NCBI GenBank assembly: GCA_965650035.1
Contig: CBFGMR010000010.1
Location: 2,593 to 66,592 of the forward strand
Direction: 5' to 3'
Length of the DNA: 64,000 bases
Origin: an uncultured Pseudoxanthomonas sp.
GTDB lineage: Bacteria; Pseudomonadota; Gammaproteobacteria; Xanthomonadales; Xanthomonadaceae
Below are positions 4,020 through 23,740 of the stretch, piece after piece. A model generated the notes under the pieces. It saw only the letters and a program-made list of their open reading frames with translations. It searched no databases and had not been told where the DNA came from. Position numbers and translations under genes: made by a program. Position 1 is the stretch's first letter. The number at the start of each line of letters is the position of its first letter.

Positions 4020-4168
4020 AACGGAATCGTAACGGTTTTCGGCTTCCCTGAATGAACGGGAGCCGACGCGGCCTAGTGGTTGATTAGGAAATGGATTCTG
4101 GCGCCGGGCGGTGAATTCGATCTGAATTTATCCACAGCCCGATTCGGCGCGTTCAGGTTCCTGGCTGC

Positions 4169-5080: not shown

Positions 5081-5257
5081 ACGGATGCCTTTTTAACCAC
5101 CGAAGCGGAAAGACTATCCCAGGACAAGGCTCCAGTTCGGCCTCTTGCTTTGAAGATCCTGCATTTTCAATTTCGATGCGTCCGGCAAACCGGTTTCAAG
5201 GATGGCCATGGCTGTGCGCTCCATTACAACCTGGGTGCCGCCGTCACTAACCTGTGT

Positions 5258-5836
5258 CTAGTCTTCAAGTATCAGGTACTCGCCTTGCGTTCCGGCCCGC
5301 TTGGGAGTCTTACCTACCTTCACGCAAAGCGCGTTGTCTTTTCCGCACCGGGTCAGACTGCCTGATTGGGTTGCGTGCAGAATGTCGGCGCCAAATTCCG
5401 CTCGCTCCAACTCTCGCATGTTCTTCCAGACGAGGTAACTACTGCCCCCGGCTGCAAGCAGCGAACCTATAGTCAGGGCTATCAGGCCCTTCCAGACGAG
5501 CAGGCTCTGGGTTCGCGCCAAAACCCTGTGTTGCTCCCGCATCATTTCTGCCGACGATTTTGCGCTGGCGGCGCTTTGCTGCAGCTCCGCGTTGAACTGA
5601 TGCACCGCCTGACCAGTGCCCTGCACGACGACATCGTGTGCTTGCTCGCCGACCAATCGTACCGCCTGACCCACGAATTGCTCGACATCAACATTGAATC
5701 GTTGCCTGCCTTGGTCCAACGCGCTCGCACTGCTCTCGATCCGCTGTACCGCTGCGGCGTTTCTTGCGTCCAGCTGATTGGCGATGGCCGCCAACTTGAC
5801 CAGCAACTGCTTGACTTCGTCGAGGTTCGAATCCAT
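5258..5836 (-). CDS. Coiled-coil plus single-TM protein (MobB/'relaxation protein'-like)
   Basis: Long Gln/Ala helical N-terminus, TM LLVWKGLIALTIGSLLAAGGSSYLVW, small C-terminal domain with two Cys; RBS AAGGGA; family call is from memory. Confidence 0.65.
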   Translation of the reverse strand: MDSNLDEVKQLLVKLAAIANQLDARNAAAVQRIESSASALDQGRQRFNVDVEQFVGQAVRLVGEQAHDVVVQGTGQAVHQFNAELQQSAASAKSSAEMMREQHRVLARTQSLLVWKGLIALTIGSLLAAGGSSYLVWKNMRELERAEFGADILHATQSGSLTRCGKDNALCVKVGKTPKRAGTQGEYLILED

Positions 5837-5865
5837 TCGTCTGTCCCTTGCGCTCTTCTAATACG

Positions 5866-7317
5866 TCACATCCGCATGGAATGCGGCTTCTGTGCAGGTG
5901 CCTCCGGCACTTGCTGCGCCAACAGCGGTTGCGCCTCGACCTGTTGCGCCTGTTCGTAGGCTTTGACTTCCTGCTGCCAGGATTGGCCTGCGGCTGAATC
6001 AAGAAACTGGTTGGTCGCCGCTTGCGATTCTTTCAGCGTGACTGCGTTATCAACATGCAGAGTTGCTGCGTAGAGTTGGTCGATGCTGGCGTCGAGCGGG
6101 CGGGGCTTCGATTGGACCTGAGCCGCGGGCCGCTGTTGCGGGTGGTCTACGGGAATCCAGGACTCAATGTCCTGCGGAAGCTTCGGCGTCGGCGCTATCG
6201 GCACGGCACGAAATTCCAGTTGCTCCTCCAACTCGGAATTGATCGGCTGGCGCGTGGCGCAGTCCCGGATCTCGCCCCGCTGGCAGAGCACGGAAGGACC
6301 CAGCTCATTGTGGCGGTCGCGAACGCCGTCGCGGTAACCGAAAGTGGTGTACAGCCCACCCATGTGCTGCTCCGACCGATGAATCACGCTCATGGCAGGA
6401 TCGTCCGGCACCGCCCGCTTCTGCAAGAATGGCTTGTCGCTTAACGCATTCAAATAGTCCACGCCCAGGTTGAAACTGCGGACGCCCAGACCATTGTGCC
6501 GGTAAGTATCGCCGATATCGCTATGGCACCCGGCAACGGTCAAGTTGAGCGACGTCATGCCATCGCTCCAACCCGCCGGAATATGATTGGTGGACTTGAA
6601 CGGATCCCGGGCCTCGTTCTCGGCCGTGATCTGCAGCACCGATACCACCGAAGGCGGCAAGCGTCGGTCGTGCTCTTTCACCCCAGTCGCCACCGGGTCA
6701 TAGAGCAGCACGGCCTGAATTGTTTTGCCCGGCGCCACCAAAGGAGGATTGCTGTACTTGACCTGCGTAACCAGATCCTCGCCATCCCGTACAACTCTGG
6801 CGCCTCGCGGATCCTGGATACCACGCTCCTCAATCATGCGAGCAAGCGCCGCAACCTCCTCCGCACCCCGACTGAAACCGATGCCCGCCACACGGATTTG
6901 TGCCTGGGGGTCTTCATCTATCCACTTTTTGGCTTGCTCACAGAACTGCATATATGCAGTTTCCACGCGCCTCTCAAAGGTAAATCCTGAAAAGCCATCG
7001 ATATTGCGCGTTACCGGGTTGTCTTGAGTAAAAGTACCTTCAACGTAACCCGTGGCGATGTTAGGCGACCCGGATAGCTCGATCTGCTTGTGGATCTTTG
7101 CAACCACGCTCCAGTTCTCTGGTGCGTCGTTCGACATACTGTTTCCAGTGCCGTCCAACGCAGCAACATAAAGTCGCTCATGCGGATTGGCAGCCTTCTG
7201 CAGCACCGGCACCTGCATCTTTCCGATTAATTCTTCAGCCTGCCGGTAACTATTAAGATCACTTTCATTCGCAAGTGGAGCGTCGACTCCATCAGGCTTG
7301 TTGTCTATCGTACCCAT
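5866..7317 (-). CDS. DUF2235 / Tle1-like alpha-beta hydrolase (putative phospholipase effector)
   Basis: ALDGTGN, GFSRG nucleophile elbow, LYDPV, GCHSDIG motifs; no signal peptide; Gln-rich tail ending PHSMRM. Confidence 0.85.
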   Translation of the reverse strand: MGTIDNKPDGVDAPLANESDLNSYRQAEELIGKMQVPVLQKAANPHERLYVAALDGTGNSMSNDAPENWSVVAKIHKQIELSGSPNIATGYVEGTFTQDNPVTRNIDGFSGFTFERRVETAYMQFCEQAKKWIDEDPQAQIRVAGIGFSRGAEEVAALARMIEERGIQDPRGARVVRDGEDLVTQVKYSNPPLVAPGKTIQAVLLYDPVATGVKEHDRRLPPSVVSVLQITAENEARDPFKSTNHIPAGWSDGMTSLNLTVAGCHSDIGDTYRHNGLGVRSFNLGVDYLNALSDKPFLQKRAVPDDPAMSVIHRSEQHMGGLYTTFGYRDGVRDRHNELGPSVLCQRGEIRDCATRQPINSELEEQLEFRAVPIAPTPKLPQDIESWIPVDHPQQRPAAQVQSKPRPLDASIDQLYAATLHVDNAVTLKESQAATNQFLDSAAGQSWQQEVKAYEQAQQVEAQPLLAQQVPEAPAQKPHSMRM

Positions 7318-7334
7318 CCCTAGTACTCCTTAGC

Positions 7335-7946
7335 TCAATAGGTGCGGCTAAACACTTTGATCAAATCATCGCGATAGTCGCTGTGTGGCCTATCGGCAAA
7401 CCTTGGTTCCTTCAAGAAAATCATCGCCCGCATGTAAATGTTGATGGTTCTATCATTGACCTCAAGGATGATTTCCGGGGTGGGGACATAGCTGGTTTCT
7501 GAAATATCCACACGTGCCACGTTGTGGCGAATAAGTTTGTCCTTGAATATCTCTCCAATATCGATTTCGGCCCTAAGAGGCGTGCCGTCCTTGGATTTCC
7601 AAGTAACGACGGCTGGTGGTGGGAAGTTGGGGATGGGACCACGGCCTGCCGTGAGCAGCTTCTCCAAAGGTATTCCATAAGATTCAACGGAAGGCCTGGG
7701 CTCGTCCGATCCATGAGGGAAGCCTCGATACAAAATCTCACAGCTTTGAGTATCGAAACACTGCACCCCGAAATTATGGGCAATAAACCATAGCGGCCAA
7801 TCGGCCACGGTACCCGTATAGGGCCCGTGCCCGGATGGCGGCGTCGTGTTGGTAGATGAAGACATGGCCGATTGGCATCCTGTTGATAACAAGCAAAGCA
7901 GCAGAACGATCGATGCAAGCTGCTGCTCACTGGAAAATATTCTCAT
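7335..7946 (-). CDS. Lipoprotein, putative immunity protein of the downstream DUF2235 effector
   Basis: Lipobox LSTGC; 17 bp upstream of the lipase; start may be 7946 or 7988. Confidence 0.7.
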   Translation of the reverse strand: MRIFSSEQQLASIVLLLCLLSTGCQSAMSSSTNTTPPSGHGPYTGTVADWPLWFIAHNFGVQCFDTQSCEILYRGFPHGSDEPRPSVESYGIPLEKLLTAGRGPIPNFPPPAVVTWKSKDGTPLRAEIDIGEIFKDKLIRHNVARVDISETSYVPTPEIILEVNDRTINIYMRAMIFLKEPRFADRPHSDYRDDLIKVFSRTY

Positions 7947-7994
7947 CTTTGCGTCCTGCACCCGCATCCTAAGACGAACCTGCTTCATCCCGCA

Positions 7995-8813
7995 TTATTG
8001 AGAAGCGGCACTATTGTCGGCCTTGCACTGCTGCAGGGAGGCAACCAGCTTATCCGCAAGCTTTCCCAGCCGATTCTCCAATGCGATTTCCGCTTCAGTG
8101 GTGTCGGATGCTTCCACATCCCCAAGCACCGCAACCTCGAACCGATTGGATCCTTTTACGAAAATTCTATGCGCCGAGTGCAAACGTTGCCCTTCGCGCC
8201 CACCAGAGTAAAAACCTCTGGACAAAGGAAAAGGTCCGGCAGGAGTGTTTTCCGCGATATCGGTAAGCTGCAGGCGTATCACTGGACCCCAGGCGGACTT
8301 CCCTGTTTCCATCCTATATCTATTGCCTGGAGGATCCGTGTTGACGGTACGTGCTGCGCGGTGTTCGTTGTCCAGCAGCGCCGCAAAATCCTGGGCTTCC
8401 GAACGTCCTTTCGGCACGGTAGAGGTGACGATGAAAGCTAGTATCGGGCCCTTGTAGGTGGCTCGAAAATAGGAAATTGCGTTCCCGTTTAGCAGACCTT
8501 CGTCTAGACGAGTAACAAATCCCGGATCGGGAAAATCAACGCAATACACATCTAAAAATGAATGGCGGCCGGGCCACCCGTTTCCCTCGAGAGTCACGCC
8601 ACTAGGTCCATACGAGAATTCGTACTCAGCCGCTGCCAAACCCTGGGGAGCAAACATAATCGCTGCAGCAAGAAGCGCTGAGCCAAAACCGGATAGAGAT
8701 AGCAAGAACCGACGTCCTGCCAGCCCAAAGTACAACAACGGCCTGGTCAGCACGGAACGAGTTGCTCCAGAACATCTTTCCATAATGGCATCCTGCCGAT
8801 TAGTCGAGTTCAA
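7995..8813 (-). CDS. Secreted hypothetical protein
   Basis: 272-codon ORF with hydrophobic leader ending GLAAA; AT-richer codon usage; no recognised family. Confidence 0.6.
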   Translation of the reverse strand: MNSTNRQDAIMERCSGATRSVLTRPLLYFGLAGRRFLLSLSGFGSALLAAAIMFAPQGLAAAEYEFSYGPSGVTLEGNGWPGRHSFLDVYCVDFPDPGFVTRLDEGLLNGNAISYFRATYKGPILAFIVTSTVPKGRSEAQDFAALLDNEHRAARTVNTDPPGNRYRMETGKSAWGPVIRLQLTDIAENTPAGPFPLSRGFYSGGREGQRLHSAHRIFVKGSNRFEVAVLGDVEASDTTEAEIALENRLGKLADKLVASLQQCKADNSAASQ

Positions 8814-8957
8814 TTTAGGCCATCAGCGGGCGACGTTCAACTCACATTTGCTTCCAACCCGTAAGCCCGGCTGTAGCCAATCAGCGGCTTCGCTCACACT
8901 CATGTTACTGGGCTCACATCTAAAGCAGCTGCTTGCGAAGTCAACCAGAACCTTGCA

Positions 8958-8985
8958 ATAAAAAAGCCCCGCGAGTGCGGGGCTT
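8958..8985 (-). terminator. Rho-independent terminator after the SLT/NlpC effector
   Basis: Stem AAGCCCCGC/GCGGGGCTT with 4-nt loop, followed on the minus strand by a T tract. Confidence 0.85.
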
Positions 8986-9007
8986 CTGTGGTGGGATGGA
9001 ATGGCGA

Positions 9008-10897
9008 TCAGATGCCCATCGTGCGCCGCTGCTCGCTTTCCTGCTGTGCTTGCGGCTGATTCTGCGTTTCCTGCTGCACTTGCGCCGTGCTTTTTTCGAT
9101 CGGCTCGGCGGTGGCCTGTGCCTTGTCCATATAGACACGGCGGTTGGCCGGATCACCGGGTTCGCCTTGCACCAGGAATACGCCGCTGCCGTTGGTGTTG
9201 GGCAGCACATGGTCGATCCGGGTCAGGCCGCTGGCCTTGGCTTCGAACACGCCGGCCGCCGCTGCGTTCTCCAGATCCTGTCGGCTCTTGAACGCCTGCG
9301 GGCCGAGTTGTTCCATGCCCTTGACCGTCTGTTGGAACAGCGCATTGTCCGGATGGCGCGTATCGGAAAGCAGCGGCGCTTCCCGGGATTTCTTCAACGC
9401 TTCCAGAGTCTGGGGTCCGACCAAGCCATCGGCCTTCAAGCCATGGGCTTGCTGGTAAGCCTGCAAGGATTCCTTGGTACGGTCGCCGAAACTGCCGTCT
9501 TCCTTCAGCGGACGGCCTTCCTTGTCGCGATAGCCGTAGCTGTTCAAGGTGTCTTGCAGTTTGCGGATTTCGTCGTTCTTTTCGTCGTGCTTCACCGCAC
9601 CGTCGGCTTGCTGCGGTTGCGGCTTCGTTTGTCCTTGCGTCTGTGTCTGGTGTTGCGTTTGCTGCTTGTCCTGCAGCAGCGTCCGCGCCTCGGCCAGCGG
9701 GTCCGTTGCGTAGAGCTTTACTCCATTGGCCTGCTTTCGCTCCAGGTACCTGTCCAGCGAACTCAATTCCACGCCTTCGCCACCGCGCGACTGGCTGATC
9801 ATCAGCTCGCCGCTCTTGGGATCCTTCACCACCATGGTGATGTGATCGATGCCTTTGTAGCGGCCACCGTCCCACTTGGTGGGGCCGTTGTCCTCGCCGA
9901 TGATCATGCCTTCCTTCAGCACGTCGCGGGTGACCGCCTTGCCTTCGATCATCACCCCAGAGCGCGCTTGCGCTTTATCGACGATCATCGCTGCGCCGTC
10001 GGTACCGGGTTTGAACAGCTCTCCTTTGTCGAACACCACACGACCGGCCTTCGCGTTTATCTCGGCCATCGTCGCATTCTGCATGGTCGTCACCCAGCCC
10101 GAGCAATCCACATAGCCCTGATCCGGGTGCTTGCCGTCGACGCCCGGGTATTTTCCGCTCATGGCGTACTTCACATGATCGTATTTCACGCTCAGGTCGT
10201 GGGCGGCGGTCAGCGCGATTCCTGTTGCCGGGGCAGTCTGCGTAGGCGTGGTCTGCGTCGGTGTGCTCTGAACCGGAGTGCTCTGGCGCGCATCGGTCGT
10301 CGGCTCTATCCCCTTTTCCGGAATGCGTACCCGATCGAACTTCGTATCCCAGTACTGCGTGAACGTCGTCGCCATGTCGCGATCCGACATGGTTCTGAAA
10401 TCGGCGTATTTCTGGCCCGTCACCGCTTCGAAATCGCGGGAACTGACGTTGTTGAGAATCTTGCTGCGCGTATCTTGACGGCCGAACTCGCCTGTAGCGA
10501 TGGCAGTCTGTACGGATCTATAACCCGCCGCGCCCTGCTGGTGCGCCAGGTACATATCCAAACCATCGGGTTCGGGCTTGCCTGACAAGTAGGGGCGACC
10601 ATCGTTCGCATGTCGATTGACCAATGCGTTTCGATTATCCAGGTACAAGCGGGCTGCCGCATCGGTGTTGACCACGGCATCCAATTCACGGCCGCGGATG
10701 CCATATTGATCCGCCGTGTCCGGAACGAACTGGAATAACCCCTTGGCCCCATGTGTCCCACGCGAGACCTGTTCGTCGAACGTACCTCCGGTCTCTATAT
10801 AGGCGAACCGCATGAAATCGTCGCGCGGGATGTTCCTTTCCTGCGCTTCCCGTTCGATGATGTCCAGTACTTCCTTCTTGCTGTAATCCTGCGCCAT
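9008..10897 (-). CDS. T4SS effector: lytic transglycosylase + NlpC/P60-like peptidase + PG-binding + XVIPCD
   Basis: SLT motifs IETGG, GLFQF, YLAHQQG; DCSG...IDHIT; PG-binding DG.FG..T...L.AYQ..HGL.ADG.VGPQT; XVIPCD LSDTRHPDNALF...GVFLVQG; no signal peptide. Confidence 0.88.
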   Translation of the reverse strand: MAQDYSKKEVLDIIEREAQERNIPRDDFMRFAYIETGGTFDEQVSRGTHGAKGLFQFVPDTADQYGIRGRELDAVVNTDAAARLYLDNRNALVNRHANDGRPYLSGKPEPDGLDMYLAHQQGAAGYRSVQTAIATGEFGRQDTRSKILNNVSSRDFEAVTGQKYADFRTMSDRDMATTFTQYWDTKFDRVRIPEKGIEPTTDARQSTPVQSTPTQTTPTQTAPATGIALTAAHDLSVKYDHVKYAMSGKYPGVDGKHPDQGYVDCSGWVTTMQNATMAEINAKAGRVVFDKGELFKPGTDGAAMIVDKAQARSGVMIEGKAVTRDVLKEGMIIGEDNGPTKWDGGRYKGIDHITMVVKDPKSGELMISQSRGGEGVELSSLDRYLERKQANGVKLYATDPLAEARTLLQDKQQTQHQTQTQGQTKPQPQQADGAVKHDEKNDEIRKLQDTLNSYGYRDKEGRPLKEDGSFGDRTKESLQAYQQAHGLKADGLVGPQTLEALKKSREAPLLSDTRHPDNALFQQTVKGMEQLGPQAFKSRQDLENAAAAGVFEAKASGLTRIDHVLPNTNGSGVFLVQGEPGDPANRRVYMDKAQATAEPIEKSTAQVQQETQNQPQAQQESEQRRTMGI

Positions 10898-11009
10898 GCT
10901 TGGCTCTCCTTTTTCAGGTTGATTTGCGGCACGAATTGCCGCGATGCGTCAACCGGATCCGTCCCTGGATCCTATGCAGTCAGTCAACAGTTGCTCTGCT
11001 TCTTGGGTC

Positions 11010-11915
11010 TTACTGGTACTGCTTCTTCTCCGGATCGTAACGATACTCATAGGTATCGCCAGAACCCAGTGTCCGCACCTTTCCAGCGGAAACAGTCTCC
11101 GTTCCACTGCGCTGCACTTTCAACAAGGGGAGGTTGCTTCCTTCTCGCGGTTCGAAGCTCAGCGTTCCGGTACTCTTCGCGCAGGCCTGCTTCGCACCTG
11201 GTGTTTCATCGCAGGCGGCACCGTTGTCGGTACCAATCACGATGTTCCCGAGGTAGTCCCAACGCTTTTCGTCTATCTTCAACTCGTGTGGATTGAACAA
11301 AAGCAGGTCGAATGTATTGACCTGAACGCCCGTAGCCAGATACCAGGTCGGCAGAGCTAGCAGAAGCTTGCCATCGGGGGTTCGGAAGGTCTGCGGTTTA
11401 CGCGTCTCGTCGATCTCGTTGCCTTTCTCGTACGCCCCAAACTCACCAACATCACGATCCGAGCCCTGGAAAGTCCAGGGATTTTCGGTCCCCGGCGCAG
11501 TCAGCACGAATGTGGATTGAGTAATGGTCGCTTTCGTCTCTGGCGCCGGGTCGCTTTCCTTTTCGGCTTTGCTGAACTTGAACGGCGTGTCGTAAGCGAA
11601 GCCGGTGTAGTACTGCTTACCGTCCAATTCGAACCGATAACCGTACCAGTACGTCGTCCAGCTGCCGTTTTCGACTTCATACGACAGGGCGCCATCGCCG
11701 TCTTTCTGATAGATGAAATACAGCACGCTGCTGGCCGACGGCGGCTGGACTTCGGCTACTTTCTGGGATTCGTTGTTCATGACTGGGACTTCCTTATCGG
11801 TCGGCTGGACGGGGGGATTGACTGCCTTCCCGGGGGCGTTCTCGGGCGTCTTAGCGTTACAGGCGCCTATCAGCAGCACCATCAGCATAAGGAGAAGTTT
11901 TCTTCCGTGTTTCAT
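11010..11915 (-). CDS. Lipoprotein, putative cognate immunity protein
   Basis: MKHGRKLLLMLMVLLIGAC lipobox; directly upstream of effector; beta-rich mature domain of unrecognised family. Confidence 0.75.
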   Translation of the reverse strand: MKHGRKLLLMLMVLLIGACNAKTPENAPGKAVNPPVQPTDKEVPVMNNESQKVAEVQPPSASSVLYFIYQKDGDGALSYEVENGSWTTYWYGYRFELDGKQYYTGFAYDTPFKFSKAEKESDPAPETKATITQSTFVLTAPGTENPWTFQGSDRDVGEFGAYEKGNEIDETRKPQTFRTPDGKLLLALPTWYLATGVQVNTFDLLLFNPHELKIDEKRWDYLGNIVIGTDNGAACDETPGAKQACAKSTGTLSFEPREGSNLPLLKVQRSGTETVSAGKVRTLGSGDTYEYRYDPEKKQYQ

Positions 11916-12048
11916 TGTAATTCCGACTCCATAGTTGGCATCAGTGTTTCCAGAATTTTGAGGGAAAACACTGGGTGACGCCCCTGCAGATATGTACAAG
12001 AATGCGGCCGCAACGCGCTTCCGCCGCTTCAATACAGACCAATTCGCC

Positions 12049-12669
12049 CTATCGATTGCGGACGGGCACGTCGAAAGGAGGGGCATAATATTCCAGCTTT
12101 ACCAAGGGCATGGTACCTGCCGCATCCCGATAAGGTTTTCCTGTGAAGGTCTTCTCATAAACGCATCGGACCCCTTGCTTTTTGCAGGAGGCGAGAACGT
12201 CATTTTTTGCCTTTCTCGGCGTCGCACCCCAACCAGACCATAGTGTTCCGTCCGATGCACGCGCGATCGCAATCGATGAATTGCTACCAGCTTTTGCAAT
12301 AGTACAGCCTTCACTCATCGCTACTGCACAGAGCCTCAACGCCCCTTCTTTCGCCTCTTCCTCAGAACGAGCATTCCATATCGCCCAGACATCGGAAGCA
12401 TCGGGATGCCACGCCACGGCAACATAATTGCTCGCCCAATAATAGTTATATTGCTGAGTTCGGGGGCCAGATTGTTGTGGTTCAGGCTCATCAACGTGTA
12501 TGCAAACGGGAATTGAGACCAGCCCGCTATTGCCTCCTCCGGTCATACCAACCTGCTGCTCTCCCGGACCAGCTCCGGCCGGACAAAGATAGTTTTGTGC
12601 CGACGCCGATTCTGAGGCCAAACCCATCGCCAACATGGCCAAAATAATTCCAATCCCAAAACGCAGCAT
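12049..12669 (-). CDS. DUF4189 protein (X-T4SS immunity-like)
   Basis: Signal peptide; YVAVAW...EEEAKEGALRLC...C...SIAIA...AK..VLASC..C repeat pattern. Confidence 0.8.
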   Translation of the reverse strand: MLRFGIGIILAMLAMGLASESASAQNYLCPAGAGPGEQQVGMTGGGNSGLVSIPVCIHVDEPEPQQSGPRTQQYNYYWASNYVAVAWHPDASDVWAIWNARSEEEAKEGALRLCAVAMSEGCTIAKAGSNSSIAIARASDGTLWSGWGATPRKAKNDVLASCKKQGVRCVYEKTFTGKPYRDAAGTMPLVKLEYYAPPFDVPVRNR

Positions 12670-12684
12670 GCCTATCCTCCTTGG

Positions 12685-13968
12685 CTAAATCGACATCGAA
12701 CGTCGTTGTTCGCGCTCTTGTTGCTGGGTATGTACTGCAGTCGCTGCCTCTTGCTGCGTCTGCGCTGTACTTTTTTCGATAGGCTCTGCCGCCGCTTGCG
12801 CCTTGTCCAGGTGGACGCGATGATGGGCGGGATCGTTGGGTGCGCCCTGCACTGCGAACAGACCTGTGCCGTTAGTGCTCTGCAGGACATGATCGATCCG
12901 CGTCAGACCGCTGGCCTTGGCTTCGAACACCGTCGCGCCTGCTGCGTTCTCCAGTTCCTGTCGATTCTTGAATGCTTGGGGGCCAAGTTGTTCCAGGCCT
13001 TTGACTGCCTGTTGGAACAACGCGCTGTCCGGATGGCGCGGATCGGAAAGAAGAGGGGCGGCTTGTGATTTCTTCAGCGCTTCCAAAGTCTGCGGACCCA
13101 CTACGCCATCGGCCTTCAGTCCGTGCGCTTTCTGATAGGCCTGCACCGCTTCCTTGGTGCGGTCACCAAAGCCACCATCCTCACGTAGCGCGCGGCCGTC
13201 CTTGTCGTGGTAGCCGTAGTTGTTCAGGGTGTCTTGTAGCTTGCGGATATCTTCACTTTTTTCGCCATGCTTTAACATCCCATCGGACATAGAGCCGGGC
13301 TGCGTCGATGGGTTCTTCGTCTGGTTGCTATGTTGCGCATCTTTCACAACGGTCAAGTCGTTTGCCAATGCAACCAAATCAGCTTTCTCGTTCTTGGCTC
13401 GCTCCAACAACCCTGGCCAGAGGCTGGGCGATTTACTAAACAGCTGACTGTTGTGAGCGATTTTGTAGTCCTGCACAGCTTCAACAATATCCTTGTCGGA
13501 CAGCTGGGACAGCTCGTAATTCTTTCCGAACTTTTCCTCTAACCCTTTTGAGAAAATGCCCGGCGTCAGATTTCTGAATTGAACCGAGGTGCTCCACAGC
13601 GCGTCCTGCACTGCTGGGCCTCGACCGGAAAGATCCAGTCCCCTGGCGGTCAATTTGTCGTTTTGGATATCGAAATGAGTAGCTTTGATGAATTCATGCT
13701 GGTCTTTGGCGAAACCAGGATCAGTTTTTGCAAGATCGCGCCATTTGGCATCGAACGCAGGAGTTGCGGGGGTTAGATCTTTGAACTGGTCCTTGTAGGG
13801 CGACTGATCCAAATATTCTTGCAACGTCCCCATTTTTGTGGAGAGCTGATAGGAACCATAGGAAACCCCGCCGCGGTCACCTCTTCCTGTAGAGATCGTC
13901 GCCGCCCCACGACCACCGGTTTCATACTTGGTTGAAGTCTGACCAAGATTCCAATCTTCGTTCGCCAT
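12685..13968 (-). CDS. T4SS effector: VgrG3-like muramidase domain + PG-binding + XVIPCD
   Basis: TSTKYETGGRGAATISTGRGDRGGVSYGSYQL resembles the VgrG3 C-terminal lysozyme-like domain; PG-binding and XVIPCD (LSDPRHPDSALF...GLFAVQG); GGAGG RBS before ATG 13968. Confidence 0.85.
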   Translation of the reverse strand: MANEDWNLGQTSTKYETGGRGAATISTGRGDRGGVSYGSYQLSTKMGTLQEYLDQSPYKDQFKDLTPATPAFDAKWRDLAKTDPGFAKDQHEFIKATHFDIQNDKLTARGLDLSGRGPAVQDALWSTSVQFRNLTPGIFSKGLEEKFGKNYELSQLSDKDIVEAVQDYKIAHNSQLFSKSPSLWPGLLERAKNEKADLVALANDLTVVKDAQHSNQTKNPSTQPGSMSDGMLKHGEKSEDIRKLQDTLNNYGYHDKDGRALREDGGFGDRTKEAVQAYQKAHGLKADGVVGPQTLEALKKSQAAPLLSDPRHPDSALFQQAVKGLEQLGPQAFKNRQELENAAGATVFEAKASGLTRIDHVLQSTNGTGLFAVQGAPNDPAHHRVHLDKAQAAAEPIEKSTAQTQQEAATAVHTQQQEREQRRSMSI

Positions 13969-14037
13969 CGCCACGTCCTCCATTACATGTCAATAAAGTC
14001 GCAAATCACGTGCTCTTTCTGAGCATAGCGCCAGCAG

Positions 14038-14538
14038 TCAACCCGCCATTGCTTCCAGCTCTTCCGCGCGTTTCGCGGTCATTTCCAAGAAGCAATCGTT
14101 CGCTTCAATTCGTTGTCCTTGTCCTTCTTCACTGGCGTCCCACCCGCATTTCGAATCTCGTTCCGCAAGCCATAGCTTTTGGCTTGATTCCAGCTCGATC
14201 TTCTTGCTTCCTTCTGATGCTTCCAGTAAGCGACGATATACGCCATTCAAGCGTGAATCCTGATATTCGAATTCCTCTTCTATGCACGCCTGCATCTCCG
14301 GTACAACACCTCCTGATGCCTTAATGCACTCGCCATATGAACTGCGCAACATGGAAACGTCTCCACTTGAGGGTTGATCGTGCTGGGTGTCTTTCGGAGC
14401 TGACTCGACGGCAGATTGTTGCATAGCAGCAGCGGAAGGGCTGGCGGCAAGCTCAGGGACGCTCTCGGGCGTCTTCGCATTACAAGCGCCGATCAGCATC
14501 AAGATCGGCACAATGAGAAACTTTCTTCCATGTTCCAT
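14038..14538 (-). CDS. LprI-family (DUF1311) lysozyme-inhibitor lipoprotein, putative immunity
   Basis: Lipobox LIGAC; MQAC...QDSRLNGVYRRL...SQKLWLAERDSKC...C pattern. Confidence 0.85.
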   Translation of the reverse strand: MEHGRKFLIVPILMLIGACNAKTPESVPELAASPSAAAMQQSAVESAPKDTQHDQPSSGDVSMLRSSYGECIKASGGVVPEMQACIEEEFEYQDSRLNGVYRRLLEASEGSKKIELESSQKLWLAERDSKCGWDASEEGQGQRIEANDCFLEMTAKRAEELEAMAG

Positions 14539-14564
14539 GGTGACCTCAATCCTCCATGCTGCTT

Positions 14565-15098
14565 CTAGAATTTCTTGAAATTAGGTTTAGTGCAATCCGA
14601 GTAAACAATTCGACAGTTAGCGCCGGCGCGTGAATTGCACTCCGAAAGAGCTAGTTGACTGGCGACTTCAATCGTCGGTCCGCTCTGCGTGGTCACGCTA
14701 GCTCCCACCACCGAAGGCCAAGCCACTACTCCACATTGGTTGTGGTATGACGTGACTTCACACTGTTTTGCACCATGCTTTGCGCAAAGTCTGGCTGCCT
14801 CACGCTTGGCTTCACGCTCAGTTCTCTTGCCCACTGCTGTTCCCATGTCTCCAACTACCGGGTCGACTGCAATTGCACCCCATGTAGTTTCCCACTTGCC
14901 TAGTGGTTTCGGAGAGCTTGGATTGGTTTGAGCCTGACTGCCATCTGTCCCTTGTTCAGCAGGTTCTCTTATACATCTGGGGTCATTCCAAGCCGCGCCT
15001 ACCGGACAAGTGTATTTTGTGTCTCCGACTACATACTGAGCAAACGCGCTATCGGCAACAAGCAACAAGCATATAGTCAACGCAGCCTTCCATTTCAT
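14565..15098 (-). CDS. DUF4189 protein (X-T4SS immunity-like)
   Basis: Signal peptide; WGAIA, AKREAARLC, C, NQCGVVAW, CRIVYSDC motifs. Confidence 0.88.
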   Translation of the reverse strand: MKWKAALTICLLLVADSAFAQYVVGDTKYTCPVGAAWNDPRCIREPAEQGTDGSQAQTNPSSPKPLGKWETTWGAIAVDPVVGDMGTAVGKRTEREAKREAARLCAKHGAKQCEVTSYHNQCGVVAWPSVVGASVTTQSGPTIEVASQLALSECNSRAGANCRIVYSDCTKPNFKKF

Positions 15099-15167
15099 AA
15101 CATCTCCTCCACATCTTTACTGTTAAACACTTGTCAACTTATCAGTGGACTTTAGAATTCGGCCTCA

Positions 15168-15449
15168 TTATCGGAAACTCTCGAAAACTGGTTTACTACA
15201 TTTGGAATAGACAATTTTGCATGCGCCTCCGCTACTCCGGGCACATTTTTGCAAGGCCGAATCATTGGCAGCATCAGTTGAATGGCCACCATCGGCTGTT
15301 ACCTTGGCGCCAACTGACGATGGCCAATCCAATGCGCTGCATTGATTTGAGTACACGAGCAGAAGCTCGCACTCTTTTGCACCATGCAGCTTGCATCGTT
15401 CTTCAGCAAGGCGCTTCGCTTTATTTTTTTGCTGCTCTCCACTAGTAGC
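15168..15449 (-). pseudogene. 5'-truncated DUF4189 remnant, in frame after the stop of the upstream DUF4189 gene
   Basis: Manual translation from 15449: ATSGEQQKNKAKRLAEERCKLHGAKECELLLVYSNQCSALDWPSSVGAK...CKIVYSKCSKPVFESFR, no start, signal peptide or WGAIA strand. Confidence 0.7.
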
Positions 15450-15986
15450 TCAATCTTGTAGAACCGGCTTCGTACAATCGGAATATACGATCTCACATTC
15501 TCCACTTCCGCTCTTGGCGCCGCACGCAGAAAGCGCCAGTTTACTTGCCACCTCAATAGAGGGACCACTTTGCGTAATCGCCGCGCCACCAACAGCCTGC
15601 CCATTCTCTGACGCCCACGCAATAACCGCGCATTGATGCTTATATGCTAGTTGCAGATCACATTTAGCGCTTCCCAATGCCTCACACTTTGATACGGCCT
15701 CACGTGTAGCTTCACGTTTTGAGTATTTTCCGACCGATGTTCCCACATCGCCGCCGCCGCCTCGACTCATTGCTATTGCGCCCCACGTAAGCTTCCATTG
15801 ACGTGATGGCGGGTTTGGCAAAGTTTCCATGTTCGCTCCCTCGCCAATAGGTTGCCGAGTACATCTTGGATCATTCCAATTCGTACCGACTGGACATGTG
15901 TAGTGGTATCCACCTATGTCGTATTGTGCGATTGCATTTCCACTAATCGCGAGCAGGAAAATGAGTACGAATAGCTTCACGTTCAT
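15450..15986 (-). CDS. DUF4189 protein (X-T4SS immunity-like), first gene after virB6
   Basis: Signal peptide MNVKLFVLIFLLAISGNAIA; WGAIA, HQCAVIAW, CEIVYSDC; start may extend to 16037. Confidence 0.88.
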   Translation of the reverse strand: MNVKLFVLIFLLAISGNAIAQYDIGGYHYTCPVGTNWNDPRCTRQPIGEGANMETLPNPPSRQWKLTWGAIAMSRGGGGDVGTSVGKYSKREATREAVSKCEALGSAKCDLQLAYKHQCAVIAWASENGQAVGGAAITQSGPSIEVASKLALSACGAKSGSGECEIVYSDCTKPVLQD

Positions 15987-16076
15987 ATGAACCTCTGTCG
16001 CTCCTATTAGCGTAAGCAGCTTGATTTTATATTTCACAACCCACGCTGACTGGATCTCATCTCAGGGAGATCACAA

Positions 16077-17228
16077 CTAAGAACTCGCGTCACTATTCTT
16101 GCTAGGGCCTTGAGCTGCCAATCCACGCTGCCCGACGGAGCCCTCTACTTGGGCTTGGCCAGCAATTCTTGGGCCAGAATTTGGCGTGTATGACGCAGTA
16201 GATGTCTGCGTTGTTGGCTGAGGCGGTGGCAGGTAACCGGGCTGACCAGGCTGTCTGCCGGATACATCGCGCATTCCACCCCCAGTCGCACCACCACTCA
16301 TACCAAATACCGATCCAGGCATGAAATGCCCCATCGTCCCCTGGAAGAACGCAGCCGCCATCGGCGGCGCACTGATGATCAGCATGGTGAGAATCAAACC
16401 CAGGCCGCCCTGCTGCATCGCGCGGCTGGTAATGCCCTCGGTGCCTGCACCGCCCATCAGGTCGCCCACCAGATCGCCGGCCCAGAACGAACCTGCAACT
16501 GCGATCACCATATCCATGGCCAGCGTCACCATCACACTCAATACCGCCAACGAGAACATCGTGCCGATGCCGTAGTAGAGCCACTTGCCGAACAACTGCT
16601 TGGTCTGCTCGAACAGCAGGCAGAGGATGAACAACGGCCCCAGGCCCACGAACAGCGCCATGGCGATCTTGTTCAGCAACAGCATGGTGCCGGCGGTGAC
16701 TGCCGGTCCGCCCGCGCCGATGCCGGTGAACCACATGGCCCGGTCTTTCTTGTCGTTGAGGATTTCGTCCCCGCCGACATCCAGCGAATCGATGCTGGTG
16801 AGCGCGATCTGCATCAGCGCCAGGCTTCTGTCGATACTGTCGTAAGGATCGTCGTCCTCGCCGGTAACGGTCTGGGTGATCACCGAACTCAAGCCTTCGG
16901 TCAACGTGTTGTAGATCGAAGTCGAACCGGCCGCCGCCCCAATGGCGATACCCACGATCAGCGAAGCGCGCAGCGAATTGGTGACCAGCGCCATCATCGA
17001 GTCGCGCGACTGCCCGGTCACGATGCGGTAACCCTGGATCAGCACCCAGATAGTCAAAAGAGAGAGGGCGGCAAACCCAAGGATGCCTGCCGTTCGCTCC
17101 AGCAGGTTGCCCATGAACTCGCCGATTTCATCGCGCAAGAATTCGTTGATCTGCTGGAAGAAGACCATGTTGCTGGCTTCTGTCCCGAGACCCTGCGCTT
17201 TCTGCACCCCTGCCAACAGATCTTGCAT
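16077..17228 (-). CDS. virB6: T4SS inner-membrane protein VirB6
   Basis: Polytopic; KIAMALFVGLGPLFILCLLFEQTKQLFGKW motif; low-complexity C-tail; start uncertain (17168-17267). Confidence 0.9.
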   Translation of the reverse strand: MQDLLAGVQKAQGLGTEASNMVFFQQINEFLRDEIGEFMGNLLERTAGILGFAALSLLTIWVLIQGYRIVTGQSRDSMMALVTNSLRASLIVGIAIGAAAGSTSIYNTLTEGLSSVITQTVTGEDDDPYDSIDRSLALMQIALTSIDSLDVGGDEILNDKKDRAMWFTGIGAGGPAVTAGTMLLLNKIAMALFVGLGPLFILCLLFEQTKQLFGKWLYYGIGTMFSLAVLSVMVTLAMDMVIAVAGSFWAGDLVGDLMGGAGTEGITSRAMQQGGLGLILTMLIISAPPMAAAFFQGTMGHFMPGSVFGMSGGATGGGMRDVSGRQPGQPGYLPPPQPTTQTSTASYTPNSGPRIAGQAQVEGSVGQRGLAAQGPSKNSDASS

Positions 17229-17350
17229 CGTGCCCACTGTATTGCCCCTATAGATTCCGTCCCACACACAGGCAGATATCTGCCTGCGGTTCCAACAATA
17301 CCCAGTCCAACCGACTTTTCATCTCGCATTTCGTTATTGCCGGAACGCCA

Positions 17351-17378
17351 GACAGCCCGCAATACGATGCGGGCTGTC
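17351..17378. other. GC-rich hairpin between virB5 and virB6
   Basis: Perfect 11-bp stem GACAGCCCGCA/TGCGGGCTGTC, 6-nt loop, no clear U tract. Confidence 0.6.
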
Positions 17379-17402
17379 CGGTCTTACATAAACGCAGATG
17401 CT

Positions 17403-18179
17403 TTAACGATCACGTTTGCGGGCGACATCAAGCGCCAGGCCCAAGCTTGCGCCACGTACCAGACCCGCCACCAGAGTGCCGTCCTTTTTGCGGCCTTCCA
17501 AGGCCTCGTCCGTACTTCTGGCTTGTTCTTGCTGCAAGGAAACAACTACGCTTTGATAGGCATCCAGCGTGGTTTTCGCATTCTGCATATCCAGCTGTGT
17601 GCGAGCCTGGAGAGATGCGATCTTGTTGGTGTTGTCCTGCAGCCTGCCGGGCTCGTCCTTTCTGATGCCTGCGCGCTCGGCGTAGATCGCCTCCAGCTCC
17701 TTGGTGCGCTTTTCTTCCAGTTCAAGCACATCGACCAACTGGTTGTACTGGTCGTTCTGGTAACGGACGATGCTCTTGCAGATGGCACGTTGACCTGGGA
17801 CGGGTGCCTTCTTCACTTCCGGGCAAGCGCTCTCCTCATTCAAATGACGGTCGCGCCGCGCCGGCAGTTCCGCCTTCTTCCCGGGCTTGCCGTTGTAGCC
17901 GCCGGTAGCGCCGATCTGAAGCTGACGCATCTGCTCAAGCTGTGCGTCGTACTGCTCCTTCAGCTTGTCGTACTGCTCCTTCAACTTCGTGAGCTGGTCC
18001 ACCTGCTCGCTGTAGTCGGCCAGCCAGCCCAACTTCGTCAAGAGCGTATGCGGTAGATCCACCACCGGCATTGCACTGGCCGCGCCGACCGCCAGTCCGC
18101 AGCCAAGCACCAGCCCGCTGGCGAAGTTGACGTACCTGGATTTCGCTTGCTTGGAACCTGCTGCTTTCTTCACGTTCAT
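17403..18179 (-). CDS. virB5: T4SS minor pilin VirB5 (Xanthomonadales type)
   Basis: Position between virB4 and virB6; signal then MPVVD; coiled coil; Cys pair. Confidence 0.8.
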   Translation of the reverse strand: MNVKKAAGSKQAKSRYVNFASGLVLGCGLAVGAASAMPVVDLPHTLLTKLGWLADYSEQVDQLTKLKEQYDKLKEQYDAQLEQMRQLQIGATGGYNGKPGKKAELPARRDRHLNEESACPEVKKAPVPGQRAICKSIVRYQNDQYNQLVDVLELEEKRTKELEAIYAERAGIRKDEPGRLQDNTNKIASLQARTQLDMQNAKTTLDAYQSVVVSLQQEQARSTDEALEGRKKDGTLVAGLVRGASLGLALDVARKRDR

Positions 18180-18289
18180 TCCTCACCTCCGTTATGAGCT
18201 GGTACCACCCTGACAATTACACCCCGGCCTGAACCGGGCCGTACAACCTGTTCGACAACCTCGTCACGATCCATATGCACCACCTGTTC

Positions 18290-20758
18290 TCATGCCTTGG
18301 CCATGCCGGTACGCGCGCCCGACCCTGACGGCTTGCCGCCACCCTTTCCTGAACCCTTACGCTGGGCGTAGAACTCGCTGAGCCATTGCTCGGGGCGCAA
18401 TTCGTTGGACAGGACGCCCTGGCTCCGCGCCTGCTCCTCCAGCACTTCATGCATGATCTCGATGTTGTCGGTGGATGCCGAAATCACCGCCAGCGCATCG
18501 TCCATTCCACGCAAATTGAGCTGGCAGACGCTGGACGCATGGCCCTGCTTGACCAGGAAGCAGCGCGAGCGTTCGTCCAGGCTGACCACGACCTGGTATT
18601 CGGCCTCGGTCAGCTTCAGACCGTTGATGTAGTCGTCGCGGCTGGCATTGGGATTGGGCAGCAGGATCATGGTTGCGGTCTGCTCGATCAGCGCCGCGGC
18701 GATGTCGCTGGCCAGCGCGTCTTCCGGGCTCTGGGTCGCGAAGATGCCCAGACCGTTCTGTTTACGGATGGTCTTCTGCTTGTTCTTGGCGAACTCCTTG
18801 AGCCCGCCCTTGCCGTCGAGGATCTTCCAGAATTCGTCCATCACGTAGATCAGGCGACGGCCGTCGATCAGCGCTTCAAGACGGTGCAGCAGATAGTTGA
18901 TGACCGGCACACGCACTTCGGGATTGTCGATGATGTCGGTGTAGTCGAAGCCGATGATGTTGGCTTTCTGCAGATCGATGGTGTCCACCGGGTTGTCGAA
19001 GACCCAACCATGCGAATTGCCCGCGGTCCACTTGCGCATGCGGGCGAACAGCCCGTCGTCGCCCATGTTGGGCAGGCTCTTCTGGAAATTGGTCATGCTG
19101 CGCAGGTGCATGGGAGTGTCGAGCATGTTCTCGACCGCGCGGAAGATGTCTTCTTCTTCGCGCGAGGTGTAGCTGGCCTTCCCACCCAGCACCTTCATCA
19201 GGTCGGCCAGGAACTGCGTATTGGCATCGTTGCGCTCGCACTGGAACGGATTGAAACCGGTAGGCCGGCCGTTCTCCAGCGCCAGATAATTGCCGCCGCA
19301 GGCGCGCACGAAGATTTCGGCGCCGCGGTCCTTGTCGAAGAAGAAAATGGTCGGGGCGGGATCCAGTTTCTGGACCTGGCTGAGCAGGAAGTTGATCAGC
19401 GCGGTCTTGCCGGTACCGGACTTGCCGATGACCATGGTATTGGCGATGGCCTTCTCGCCCAACGAGTTCTCCGCCGGATGGGTGGCGTGGAAATTGAAGT
19501 AGTAGGGCTGTCCGTTGGTGGTCTGCAGCGTGGTGACGCACTCGCCCCAGGGATTGTTTTCCTTCTTGCCGGACGCGAAGTTGTGCAACGGCGACAGGCC
19601 GAGGAAGTTGAGCGAGCTGATATTGGCCAGGCGGGTGCGGTTCTTCCAGTTGCCCGGAATCTGCGAATAGAACGAGGACGCTACCGCCAGGTCTTCCTTG
19701 GTGGAGACGAATCCGGCATTGGAAAGTTCCGCGCGCGCGGTGGCGGTGTTCTGCGAGAGCTTTTCCTGGGAATCGGCGTACAGCGCCAAAGTGAAGTGAT
19801 ACTCGCCCAGCACGAAGTTGCCCGAAGCCAGCTGATCCATCGCATGGTCCAGCTCCACGATCTGGCTGACCGCCTTGTCGCCGGAAGAAATCATCATGCC
19901 CTTGGTGCGGTCCAGCACCTTGAGCGCATCCTGGCGGCCGATCGGACTGAAGGAGTGGGTTATCACATAATCGAAGTCCAGGTACTTCAGTCCATTGAGA
20001 ATGCCCGGATAGGTACCGTCGGTGTATTCCTTGATATTGAGGATGGCGCCGAAATGATTGACGCCATTGGGCGTGTTGATGATGAAGTCGCCGGTCTTGT
20101 CAGAGAACATGTGCCGGCTGACCGGCAAATAGCCGTTCACCGGCGCGCTGAGCACCGGCACCGGCTCGTCGATGCGGTTCAGCAGATAGCCGAAGAATTC
20201 CAAAGCCTCGGAGAACACCACCCCGTTGCTGGCTTCGTACATGCCCAACCGGTAGGGCGAATAATCCTTGAGCACGGCTTCCAGATTGCCCGCCAGCTCC
20301 TGGATCTTGGCGATGGCCTGATCCTGTTCGGACTGCAGCTGGGCGATGTTGGTGGATTTTTCCACCAGCCGCTTACCCGTCACCACCGGCCGGTAGATCA
20401 TGGTCAGGTACAGCTCGTTCTGCATGATCTTCTGCGAGGACAGCGACTCGAAGTAAGCGTCCGACATGTCCTGATTGAAGGCCTGCCCGAACTTGCTGCG
20501 GTCGTTGATGCGCCGCTTGCGGCGCACGTCATGCACCCAGAACGCCAGGTTGGCGAAGTCCGGTGCGCGCAGGGTCTGCAGCATGCGGTTGAAGGTGTTG
20601 TGCCGGTGCTCGATCTCCCACTCGTCCCGGCCGACGAAAGGCAGCCCGCCCAGATGCCACACCAGCAGGTAATCGCCACCGGTGGTCTTGATCACCGAGG
20701 GCGATACGTGGGTGGAGAGCGGGATGAATTCGCTGATGGAGGTGTCGGGTGTGAACAT
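18290..20758 (-). CDS. virB4: T4SS ATPase VirB4
   Basis: 822 aa; Walker A GKSGTGKT, FDKDRG, Walker B YVMDEFW, RKQNG...ATQSP. Confidence 0.97.
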   Translation of the reverse strand: MFTPDTSISEFIPLSTHVSPSVIKTTGGDYLLVWHLGGLPFVGRDEWEIEHRHNTFNRMLQTLRAPDFANLAFWVHDVRRKRRINDRSKFGQAFNQDMSDAYFESLSSQKIMQNELYLTMIYRPVVTGKRLVEKSTNIAQLQSEQDQAIAKIQELAGNLEAVLKDYSPYRLGMYEASNGVVFSEALEFFGYLLNRIDEPVPVLSAPVNGYLPVSRHMFSDKTGDFIINTPNGVNHFGAILNIKEYTDGTYPGILNGLKYLDFDYVITHSFSPIGRQDALKVLDRTKGMMISSGDKAVSQIVELDHAMDQLASGNFVLGEYHFTLALYADSQEKLSQNTATARAELSNAGFVSTKEDLAVASSFYSQIPGNWKNRTRLANISSLNFLGLSPLHNFASGKKENNPWGECVTTLQTTNGQPYYFNFHATHPAENSLGEKAIANTMVIGKSGTGKTALINFLLSQVQKLDPAPTIFFFDKDRGAEIFVRACGGNYLALENGRPTGFNPFQCERNDANTQFLADLMKVLGGKASYTSREEEDIFRAVENMLDTPMHLRSMTNFQKSLPNMGDDGLFARMRKWTAGNSHGWVFDNPVDTIDLQKANIIGFDYTDIIDNPEVRVPVINYLLHRLEALIDGRRLIYVMDEFWKILDGKGGLKEFAKNKQKTIRKQNGLGIFATQSPEDALASDIAAALIEQTATMILLPNPNASRDDYINGLKLTEAEYQVVVSLDERSRCFLVKQGHASSVCQLNLRGMDDALAVISASTDNIEIMHEVLEEQARSQGVLSNELRPEQWLSEFYAQRKGSGKGGGKPSGSGARTGMAKA

Positions 20759-20827
20759 ACGTTAGCGGATCATGTGTCAGTGGATCTCGAAATTACGGGA
20801 GCACTCGGAAAAAATGGACTGCCAAGC

Positions 20828-21521: not shown

Positions 21522-21596
21522 TCGTGTCATCTCCTTGGGTTGATTGCTAAACAAAAACAAGCGGCGGGGGTATCCATGATTCCGCTATTGGGAACG

Positions 21597-22385: not shown

Positions 22386-22687
22386 CGCGTACTCCTCCGT
22401 TACACGCTTATCGCTATCCGACGATCATTCGACAAAGCATGTGGAGTTCCACAGCCTTTCGAGTTCATTGCCGATATCCCTGCGCCCATATTTCATGAGC
22501 ACCCTAGTGTTGTCAACTTAATGCAGCCGCAAAATTCTGTAGGAAAAAGATTACATATCTACTTGTTGTGTGCCTGCTCTCACCATAAAGGCGTCTGCTA
22601 TCGGTAGCATTTTCTGTTTCAGGAAAAAAATGCCAACCCAGGTAACCAATCGGCTAGAATTTAGAGACGGCGGACACATTTTTGGCG

Positions 22688-23725: not shown

Positions 23726-23740
23726 GGCATAAGGCCCGCG

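Follow-up and report, generated by a model that had tools for sequence, protein, structure and literature searches.

Effector/immunity pairs of the antibacterial Xanthomonadales type IV secretion system (X-T4SS), referred to as X-Tfe and X-Tfi, were reportedly described by Souza in 2015. Polymorphic toxin systems, such as CdiA-CT/CdiI of contact-dependent inhibition (CDI), Rhs-CT/RhsI and orphan cassettes, are composed of exchangeable toxin/immunity modules; they are said to be treated by Zhang/Aravind 2012 and in the CDI literature. In the present study we analyzed an array of toxin, antidote and kin-protection genes, which is located on the minus strand throughout and directly 3' of virB6 in a 64,000 nt stretch of DNA from an uncultured Pseudoxanthomonas sp. 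(here referred to as the window). The closest described systems are the X-Tfe/X-Tfi pairs of Xanthomonas citri and Stenotrophomonas maltophilia, for example XAC2609/XAC2610 and TfcB (Sgro 2019, PMC6536674; Oka 2022, PMC8740702; PMC11253643). The DUF4189 protein XAC2611 of X. citri is a periplasmic trans-intoxication protection factor (Tpf) which binds VirB5; VirB5 binding and sibling protection are known only for XAC2611 and Smlt2994/2996, and in X. citri truncated virB6 genes are present as well, and the effector is followed by a second DUF4189 gene (bioRxiv 10.64898/2026.05.09.723464).

Judged by its genes, the array is an accessory locus of the X-T4SS and belongs to this already described effector/immunity system. 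The assignment is based on the vir operon directly upstream, on matches to XVIPCD, PG_binding_1, VgrG3-like_C, LprI and DUF4189 well above the Pfam cut-offs, on PDB matches to the VgrG3 C-terminal domain and to an XVIPCD structure, and on the order virB6, DUF4189, X-Tfi, X-Tfe, which matches XAC2611-2610-2609 of X. citri. As in X. citri and S. maltophilia, the effectors have an XVIPCD at the C-terminus and combine PG_binding_1 with peptidoglycan-hydrolase warheads including GH19, a lipoprotein immunity gene is located immediately upstream, and the site lies directly after virB6 and DUF4189. In contrast to the described pairs, those analyzed here are found in the genus Pseudoxanthomonas, as two to four tandem pairs with an unusually similar tail of PG_binding_1 and XVIPCD (66-95% identity versus a background of ~35%). 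Furthermore, a VgrG3-like muramidase paired with LprI is among the warheads, and mosaic junctions show block exchange. Cassette exchange for X-T4SS effectors was described neither in the 2019 review nor in the papers pairing XVIPCD with recombination that a limited literature search retrieved. As a whole, the locus is best explained as an X-T4SS effector/immunity/Tpf array that changes by block replacement, leader exchange and gain or loss of units, and we assign a probability of roughly 0.8 to this explanation.

The window contains two consecutive units of the same layout, DUF4189, lipoprotein and effector, as an earlier note on this DNA had stated. Unit B comprises dufB (14565-15098), lipB (14038-14538) and effB (12685-13983), and unit A comprises dufA (12049-12669), lipA (11010-11915) and effA (9008-10897). 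The DNA that the effectors share across PG_binding_1 and XVIPCD, previously estimated at ~580 nt, aligned over 526 nt with 78% identity (9069-9592 versus 12749-13272; E=5e-119). The lipoproteins, as had also been noticed, share their N-terminus and then continue into unrelated domains: here the similarity extends over 86 nt with 80% identity (11833-11918 versus 14456-14541; E=2e-17) and starts 3 nt before the start codons of lipA and lipB. No DNA similarity between the two units was found beyond tail and leader. In the protein comparison the C-termini of the effectors were 66% identical over 246 aa and the leaders of the lipoproteins 59% over 34 aa; nothing was alignable in the remainder of the lipoproteins or in the warheads of units A and B.

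The many synonymous differences in the shared parts had been taken to imply an old duplication under selection. Over 180 codons of the tail we obtained a synonymous divergence (dS) of 1.37, a nonsynonymous divergence (dN) of 0.126 and a ratio (omega) of 0.09, so the duplication is indeed old and the tail is under purifying selection. The two other XVIPCD effectors of the genome are only 33-37% identical to effA and effB, and their lipoproteins have unrelated leaders; the likeness of the effA and effB tails is therefore more than the family background. Recent gene conversion between the two tails of the window was considered and rejected, given this dS and a longest identical run of 23 nt. An assembly artefact as the cause of the repeat is unlikely too, since the copies differ by 22% and the layout recurs on the independent contigs L058 and L063. 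The description as a three-gene cassette holds for the layout but not for its regularity: dufA and dufB are 26% identical, and a third full DUF4189 gene (15450-16037) as well as a fragment are present.

The domain composition of the two effectors was as follows. In effB, aa 1-233 (13285-13983) represent a VgrG3-like C-terminal muramidase domain (PF21277, E=5.9e-72), and aa 234-432 (12685-13284) represent the constant tail of PG_binding_1 (PF01471, E=1.1e-18) and XVIPCD (PF20410, E=8.1e-31), which also matches the XVIPCD structure PDB 7mu9 (E=1.6e-27). The warhead is homologous to the muramidase domain of Vibrio cholerae VgrG3 (C-terminal domain, PDB 4nso and 4noo, E=2e-53). However, it is carried on an XVIPCD tail for a type IV system and not on a type VI secretion spike, and its partner is an LprI-family lipoprotein instead of TsiV3. 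In effA, the tail (aa 432-629; 9008-9604) has the same composition (PF01471, E=2e-16; PF20410, E=3.6e-29), and the C-terminal XVIPCD that characterizes X-Tfe is of full length in both effectors. The N-terminus of effA gave no confident Pfam match. In its warhead (aa 1-431; 9605-10897) a weak SLT-like region is joined by a Thr/Pro/Gln linker to a second domain, which shows a Cys/His pattern and matched no Pfam family at E up to 1; this warhead is 68-92% conserved in 11 genomes of the genus.

Both lipoprotein genes are located immediately upstream of their effector, as in X-Tfi, with lipB ending 54 nt and lipA 112 nt before the respective start codon, and both carry an L-I-G-A-C lipobox. The product of lipB is composed of a lipA-type leader (14458-14538), a linker and an LprI domain (PF07007, E=5e-19). 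LipA has 301 aa and the leader MKHGRKLLLMLMVLLIGAC (11835-11915); its true start is MKHGRK and not that of the longer open reading frame (ORF). The mature domain of LipA matched no Pfam family even at E up to 1, and its homologues (n=93) adjoin effA-type effectors wherever the gene context was examined. By these features lipB and lipA are predicted to encode periplasmic lipoprotein immunity proteins. The effectors effB and effA are putative secreted peptidoglycan-degrading X-Tfe with an N-terminal warhead, PG_binding_1 and a C-terminal XVIPCD for recognition by VirD4.

We searched 78 genomes of the genus with the effB tail and found relatives in 22 of them, several in tandem, with open frames of 387-690 aa. 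Additional metagenomic contigs (L058-L063) were found via LprI homologues; the genome of the window is named G000. The closest relative, Pseudoxanthomonas sp. CF125 (G062; VirB4 98% identical), carried dufB, a DUF4189 fragment, dufA, lipA, effA and a lipase unit, with no lipB-effB. Four units were present in G014 (GH19, effB type, lysozyme-like with M23, and effA type) together with an internal partial virB6. The genomes G077 and G052 had an effA unit and a unit of the composition M23-PG_binding_1-lysozyme-like, and in G076 a glucosaminidase unit and a lysozyme-like unit were found with a partial virB6 in between. In three genomes (G013, G039 and G004) the effA unit was the only one; it follows one to three full-length DUF4189 genes, to which a short extra copy is added in G039. 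The layout of the window (duf, lipB, effB, dufA, lipA, effA, DDAH-like gene) was present on L058 and L063.

The relatives therefore do not repeat one set of fixed pairs, and the alternative middles that the earlier note had predicted do exist: at least seven warhead architectures were found on one C-terminal module across Pseudoxanthomonas. According to head clustering, the seven on one tail clade are VgrG3-like, GH19, lysozyme-like with or without M23, M23-PG_binding_1-lysozyme-like, glucosaminidase and the effA type. At the loci where the sequences were read, LprI was paired with the VgrG3-like warhead and lipA with the effA type, and separate novel immunity domains were found with the GH19, the lysozyme-like and the M23 warheads. 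With E values of up to 1 allowed, none of these GH19-, M23- and lysozyme-cognate domains matched a Pfam family. In G077 (loci L038/L039, i2/e2) the effector with two heads is paired with a two-domain lipoprotein of 288 aa, in which the lysozyme-cognate and the M23-cognate immunity domains are fused; in G014 (i3a/i3b/e3) the same two domains are present as two separate lipoproteins. The immunity proteins are modular in parallel with the effectors. Since immunity domains follow warhead domains across loci, the warhead-immunity pairs are fixed and their link to a given tail is not.

Remnants of pairs were observed as well. On contig L062 (3114-4486) an orphan LprI gene is located beside a PG_binding_1-XVIPCD stub of 240 aa, from which the VgrG3-like head is deleted. 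In G070 (L052) an XVIPCD-only fragment of 123 aa lies beside the DDAH-like gene.

Plain tandem duplication followed by divergence would explain the array without any block exchange, if the middles had drifted beyond recognition and the ends had been kept by selection. The repeated layout is what it predicts, and the dS and omega values given above show the tails to be old paralogues under purifying selection. However, the middles come from different families (VgrG3-like_C and LprI in one unit, a two-domain SLT-like warhead and an unrelated immunity domain of 267 aa in the other), the same tail clade bears GH19, M23 and glucosaminidase warheads elsewhere, and contig L059 holds a sharp mosaic junction, described below. 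We regard this explanation as very improbable.

Tails and heads were incongruent. In the maximum-likelihood tree of the tails, those of three different G014 warheads grouped together, as did two of G076; effA-type tails grouped mostly by warhead. The G014 tails were 85-89% identical on nucleotide level with identical runs of up to 70 nt, as compared to 78% between G000 and G014 for their orthologous effB tails. Approximately unbiased (AU) tests, with the metagenomic arrays added, rejected monophyly of the tails by warhead for GH19 (p=7e-44), VgrG3-like (p=2.7e-6) and lysozyme-like (p=2.5e-5) effectors.

One precise mosaic junction was observed. On the contigs L059/L060, the slot of lipB-effB is occupied by a lipoprotein of 335 aa and a GH19-PG_binding_1-XVIPCD effector instead. 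In the lipoprotein, a lipA-type leader precedes a complete LprI domain, to which a GH19-immunity domain is fused; the immunity domain has moved with the warhead. Nucleotides 1-600 of the L059 effector are 82-90% identical to the GH19 effector of G014 and unalignable to effB. From ~nt 720 to its end the gene is 90-98% identical to the effB tail of L063, and an identity of 94% between the two contigs runs on for 1.4 kb past the effector, through dufA into lipA. The switch takes place within ~60 nt, in the linker just before PG_binding_1. In the tree, the tail of this GH19 effector fell into a clade with effB tails supported by 100/99, and on protein level this tail is 94% identical to the effB tail of the window. 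The proposed exchangeable block of immunity and toxin domains is therefore real in L059 as far as its right-hand joint at PG_binding_1 and XVIPCD is concerned; a universal left end at the leader and the membership of DUF4189 did not hold.

Whole units are gained and lost as well, with boundaries at or inside DUF4189 genes, as the comparison of G000 with G062 shows. Positions 12478-14560 of the window (lipB, effB and the first ~190 nt of dufA) have no counterpart in G062, which carries 528 nt with a DUF4189 fragment in their place. The edges of this difference are the stop codon of dufB and a point inside dufA. Positions 15068-16224 (dufC and a DUF4189 fragment) are without counterpart in G062, too. 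The distal lipase unit (5258-8813) was found only in G062 among the relatives examined, and in several others the last effector abuts the DDAH-like gene.

Such differences could suggest that only whole genes or pairs move, via repeats of DUF4189 or of truncated virB6, and that the tails are alike because VirD4 and peptidoglycan binding constrain independently acquired effectors. The clean presence or absence of lipB-effB with edges in DUF4189 genes fits well, as does the lipase unit, which is present or absent as a whole; truncated virB6 copies also separate the units in G014, G076 and G073, as in X. citri. Constraint alone, however, yields 33-37% identity between XVIPCDs of the same genome and not 66-95%. 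Moreover, the tails of the three G014 warheads resemble one another more than orthologous tails of different species do, the mosaic of L059 lies within a single ORF, and the AU tests reject a common descent of tail and warhead. Movement of whole units as the only process is thus unlikely.

The leader shared by lipA and lipB was analyzed separately. Had it been present on many lipoproteins unrelated to effectors, it would mark no cassette; in the genomes and metagenomes searched it was found only on lipA-type and LprI-type immunity lipoproteins. In the genome of 4.06 Mb the motif was not found beyond lipA and lipB. A degenerate DNA pattern of the leader was run against 401 genomes of the family Xanthomonadaceae from 64 genera (control 0) and matched, besides the two copies of the window, only a gene of lipA type in G013. 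A third immunity family with the leader was found neither in GTDB species representatives nor in JGI metagenomes, where the true matches were of lipA or LprI type only; the remaining matches of the pattern (Oscillibacter-like gut contigs and one GC-rich metagenome-assembled genome) are due to chance and are not leaders. The leaders of the remaining immunity lipoproteins in these arrays are unrelated to it. Because of this restriction to lipA- and LprI-type genes, the constant leader is specific to the system as proposed, but it is a constant left end for two immunity families only.

The lipA orthologues of close relatives (G062, G013, G039 and the L-contigs) carry the leader M[KR]HGR[KR][LF]LL.LMVLLIGACNAKTPEN, and distant ones (G014, G077 and G052) have diverged versions. 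LprI homologues that are 84-90% identical to lipB carry the lipA-type leader. Those with ~55% overall identity and an LprI core of ~70% identity carry MDCGKPLLLMAITTFLVACSPQSPEG-type leaders. In the former group lipA is located in the next unit downstream wherever the context was available (window, L058, L059/L060 and L063); in the latter, no lipA was seen on L061 and L062, and that of G014 is two units away. The LprI leader of L059 equals the leader of the neighbouring lipA at 25/26 residues. The simplest reading is that the LprI gene took over its leader from the lipA next to it.

Signal peptides are short and constrained in composition, so a common requirement, for example in Lol sorting or translation initiation, might have produced the shared leader by convergence and not by inheritance or exchange of DNA. 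Additionally, only 26-34 codons could be compared, and the leader dS of ~0.5 rests on ~17-24 synonymous sites. Convergence is nevertheless hardly probable in view of the 80% nucleotide identity over 86 nt (E=2e-17) and the absence of the motif from the other lipoproteins of the genome, with only lipA- and LprI-type matches in the wider searches. Furthermore, the distant LprI clade combines a 70% identical mature domain with another leader, and in L059 the LprI leader matches that of its lipA neighbour at all but one of 26 residues.

How block replacement might work is suggested by the gene geometry. With the immunity gene upstream and the warhead at the N-terminus of the effector, the two variable parts, immunity domain and warhead, lie side by side in the DNA and are followed by a conserved tail of ~600 nt. 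Across the genus the array changes by (a) replacement of the immunity-domain-plus-warhead block, whose right-hand crossover lies where the conserved tail begins, as L059 shows, (b) presumably an occasional exchange of leaders between adjacent immunity genes, and (c) gain or loss of whole units at or inside DUF4189 genes, as seen in G000 versus G062. Homologous recombination in the tail is proposed as the right-hand crossover because the L059 junction coincides with the first base of homology between the effectors. Left-hand homology would be supplied by leaders or Tpf genes. For exchange, incoming DNA from those relatives that have tails of at least 90% identity is a far more plausible partner than the other resident copy in the window.

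This would amount to a mirror image of the polymorphic toxin mechanism, in which recombination in the ~600 nt tail, with left homology from the leader or a Tpf gene, replaces the block in one step, displaced immunity domains are kept as fusions, and protection accumulates while the weapons change. We slightly favour this model. Like polymorphic toxins, the array has a conserved delivery module, a variable toxin domain and a tightly linked cognate immunity gene, and replacement takes place by recombination where the conserved module borders on the rest; orphaned immunity genes and remnants of toxins are left behind as well (L062, G070 and the LprI domain retained in L059). In contrast to CDI and Rhs systems, which have N-terminal delivery, a C-terminal toxin and the immunity gene downstream, the geometry is mirrored here: the immunity gene precedes the effector gene, and in the effector the toxin forms the N-terminus and the conserved module the C-terminus. 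What varies as a block is hence the immunity together with the toxin head, and homology can flank this block left and right. Delivery by a type IV system and the restriction of the toxins found to cell-wall enzymes are further differences. The array evolves like CDI and Rhs systems but, its order being reversed, is not a member of them.

Several results weigh against the explanation favoured here. The groups for the AU tests were defined after the first tree had been seen. A sliding-window comparison along the lipoprotein gene did not settle the position of the left junction in L059 (leader 84-91%, linker ~60%, LprI domain 67-87%). Over its full length this gene shares only 78% identity with that of L063; a single double crossover may therefore be too simple a description of the event. 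That homologous recombination and not illegitimate joining at the domain linker took place is suggested by the position of the junction. The two tails of the window itself differ by 22-25% and share no more than 23 identical nt in a row, which makes them a poor substrate for homologous recombination. The two units represent an old, stably maintained pair, and exchange between these two copies is now unlikely. An N-terminal antibacterial enzymatic domain is expected in an X-Tfe; that of effB is clear, and for effA we found only a weak lytic transglycosylase signal (PF01464, E=0.022; PDB lytic transglycosylases, E ~0.04). A virD4 gene was not found in the window, nor beside virB7/B8. Finally, toxicity, immunity, secretion and Tpf activity of this locus are all predicted by homology. 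VirD4/TraG-type coupling protein matches were observed elsewhere in the genome (C41:5-1036 and C7:134084-134392), one of them at a contig end.

The modular N-terminal heads on an XVIPCD tail are already well known, and the evolutionary reading is a moderately novel addition. The locus adds Pseudoxanthomonas to the genera with a well-populated antibacterial type IV secretion arsenal and supplies several uncharacterised effector/immunity pairs, namely those of the effA/lipA family, the VgrG3-like warhead with LprI, and a lysozyme-like domain for which there is a separate immunity fold. The linker before PG_binding_1 is a natural junction at which different cell-wall-degrading heads are joined to one secretion tail. 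It explains the turnover of the arsenal between species and marks the smallest tail that nature uses as a portable module for secretion. Immunity domains that are retained or fused, and the Tpf copies interleaved with the pairs, are relevant to the question how discrimination of kin and non-kin evolves alongside the weapons.

The DUF4189 genes had been proposed as members of the cassette, which did not stand. They belong to the Tpf family, and in the relatives their copy number (one to three, plus fragments) does not track that of the effector pairs (one to four). By homology to XAC2611 their products would bind VirB5 and block delivery from sibling cells; such kin protection places them functionally outside the toxin cassette. 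All three full copies match PF13827: dufA (206 aa, E=5.6e-16), dufB (177 aa, E=5.6e-20; 87% identical to the G062 orthologue) and dufC (195 aa, 15450-16037, E=6e-17; 47% identical to dufB). The sequence of dufB was read directly and shows a signal peptide; a Cys pair is located at the N-terminus and 6 Cys are found in the globular part. These features, with six core Cys, and the position immediately downstream of virB6 are shared with XAC2611 and Smlt2994/2996, as are the multiple, partly truncated copies and the high sequence variability alongside a variable VirB5 (bioRxiv 10.64898/2026.05.09.723464). In contrast to X. citri and S. maltophilia, the copies are interleaved between effector pairs, with dufA between effB and lipA, and form the edges of unit-level indels. 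A further copy at 15168-15467, between dufC and dufB, comprises the C-terminal half only (tblastn to dufB residues 80-177, 44%), contains only a 62-aa ORF and is probably a pseudogene. It recalls the truncated, non-protective Smlt2995 (bioRxiv 10.64898/2026.05.09.723464).

The complete gene order after virB4 is VirB5-position gene, virB6, dufC, truncated DUF4189, dufB, lipB, effB, dufA, lipA, effA, lipase unit and DDAH-like gene. The last structural gene of the X-T4SS is virB6 (16077-17267; TrbL/VirB6, PF04610, E=1.6e-30). Upstream of it, Pfam identified virB8, B9, B10, B11, B1, B3 and B4 (18290-26693; virB4 at 18290-20758) by the families VirB8, CagX/VirB9, TrbI/VirB10, VirB11-type ATPase, SLT/VirB1, VirB3 and VirB4. 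With virB6 these genes, at 16077-26693, and the VirD4-type gene elsewhere in the genome represent the Xanthomonadales-type VirB/VirD4 system expected of a genome with X-Tfe. Partial virB6 copies are located between effector units in G014 (L035/L036), G076 (L042) and G073 (L053), each followed by new DUF4189 genes. The arrangement resembles XAC2607/2608 in X. citri, and none was found in the window.

At the distal end, the variable lipase unit (5258-8813) consists of x0 (7995-8813), the lipoprotein gene lip0 (7335-7988), eff0 (5866-7317) and p5258 (5258-5836; 192 aa). The product of eff0 is a Tle1/DUF2235-like lipase (PF09994, E=8.5e-14) with no Pfam XVIPCD match. The DDAH/amidinotransferase-like gene at 4169-5080 (PF19420 on the equivalent gene of contigs L058-L063) is 72-92% identical and adjoins the last effector in 9 genomes of the genus; it bounds the variable array in nearly all relatives. 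In a promoter and terminator scan of 4000-17500 the counts were no higher than in shuffled sequence, so that it is uninformative about separate transcription of the units. The G+C content was 0.49-0.61 across 7001-16000, as compared to ~0.65 in the flanks, with the minimum over the DUF4189 genes (15001-16000, 0.489).

The gene in VirB5 position (17403-18179), located between virB4 and virB6, gave no Pfam match. Its product is far more variable than its neighbours, with 82% identity in G062 (VirB4 98%) and at most 37% or no detectable match in other genomes of the genus. This variability fits a co-variation with the variable Tpf proteins.

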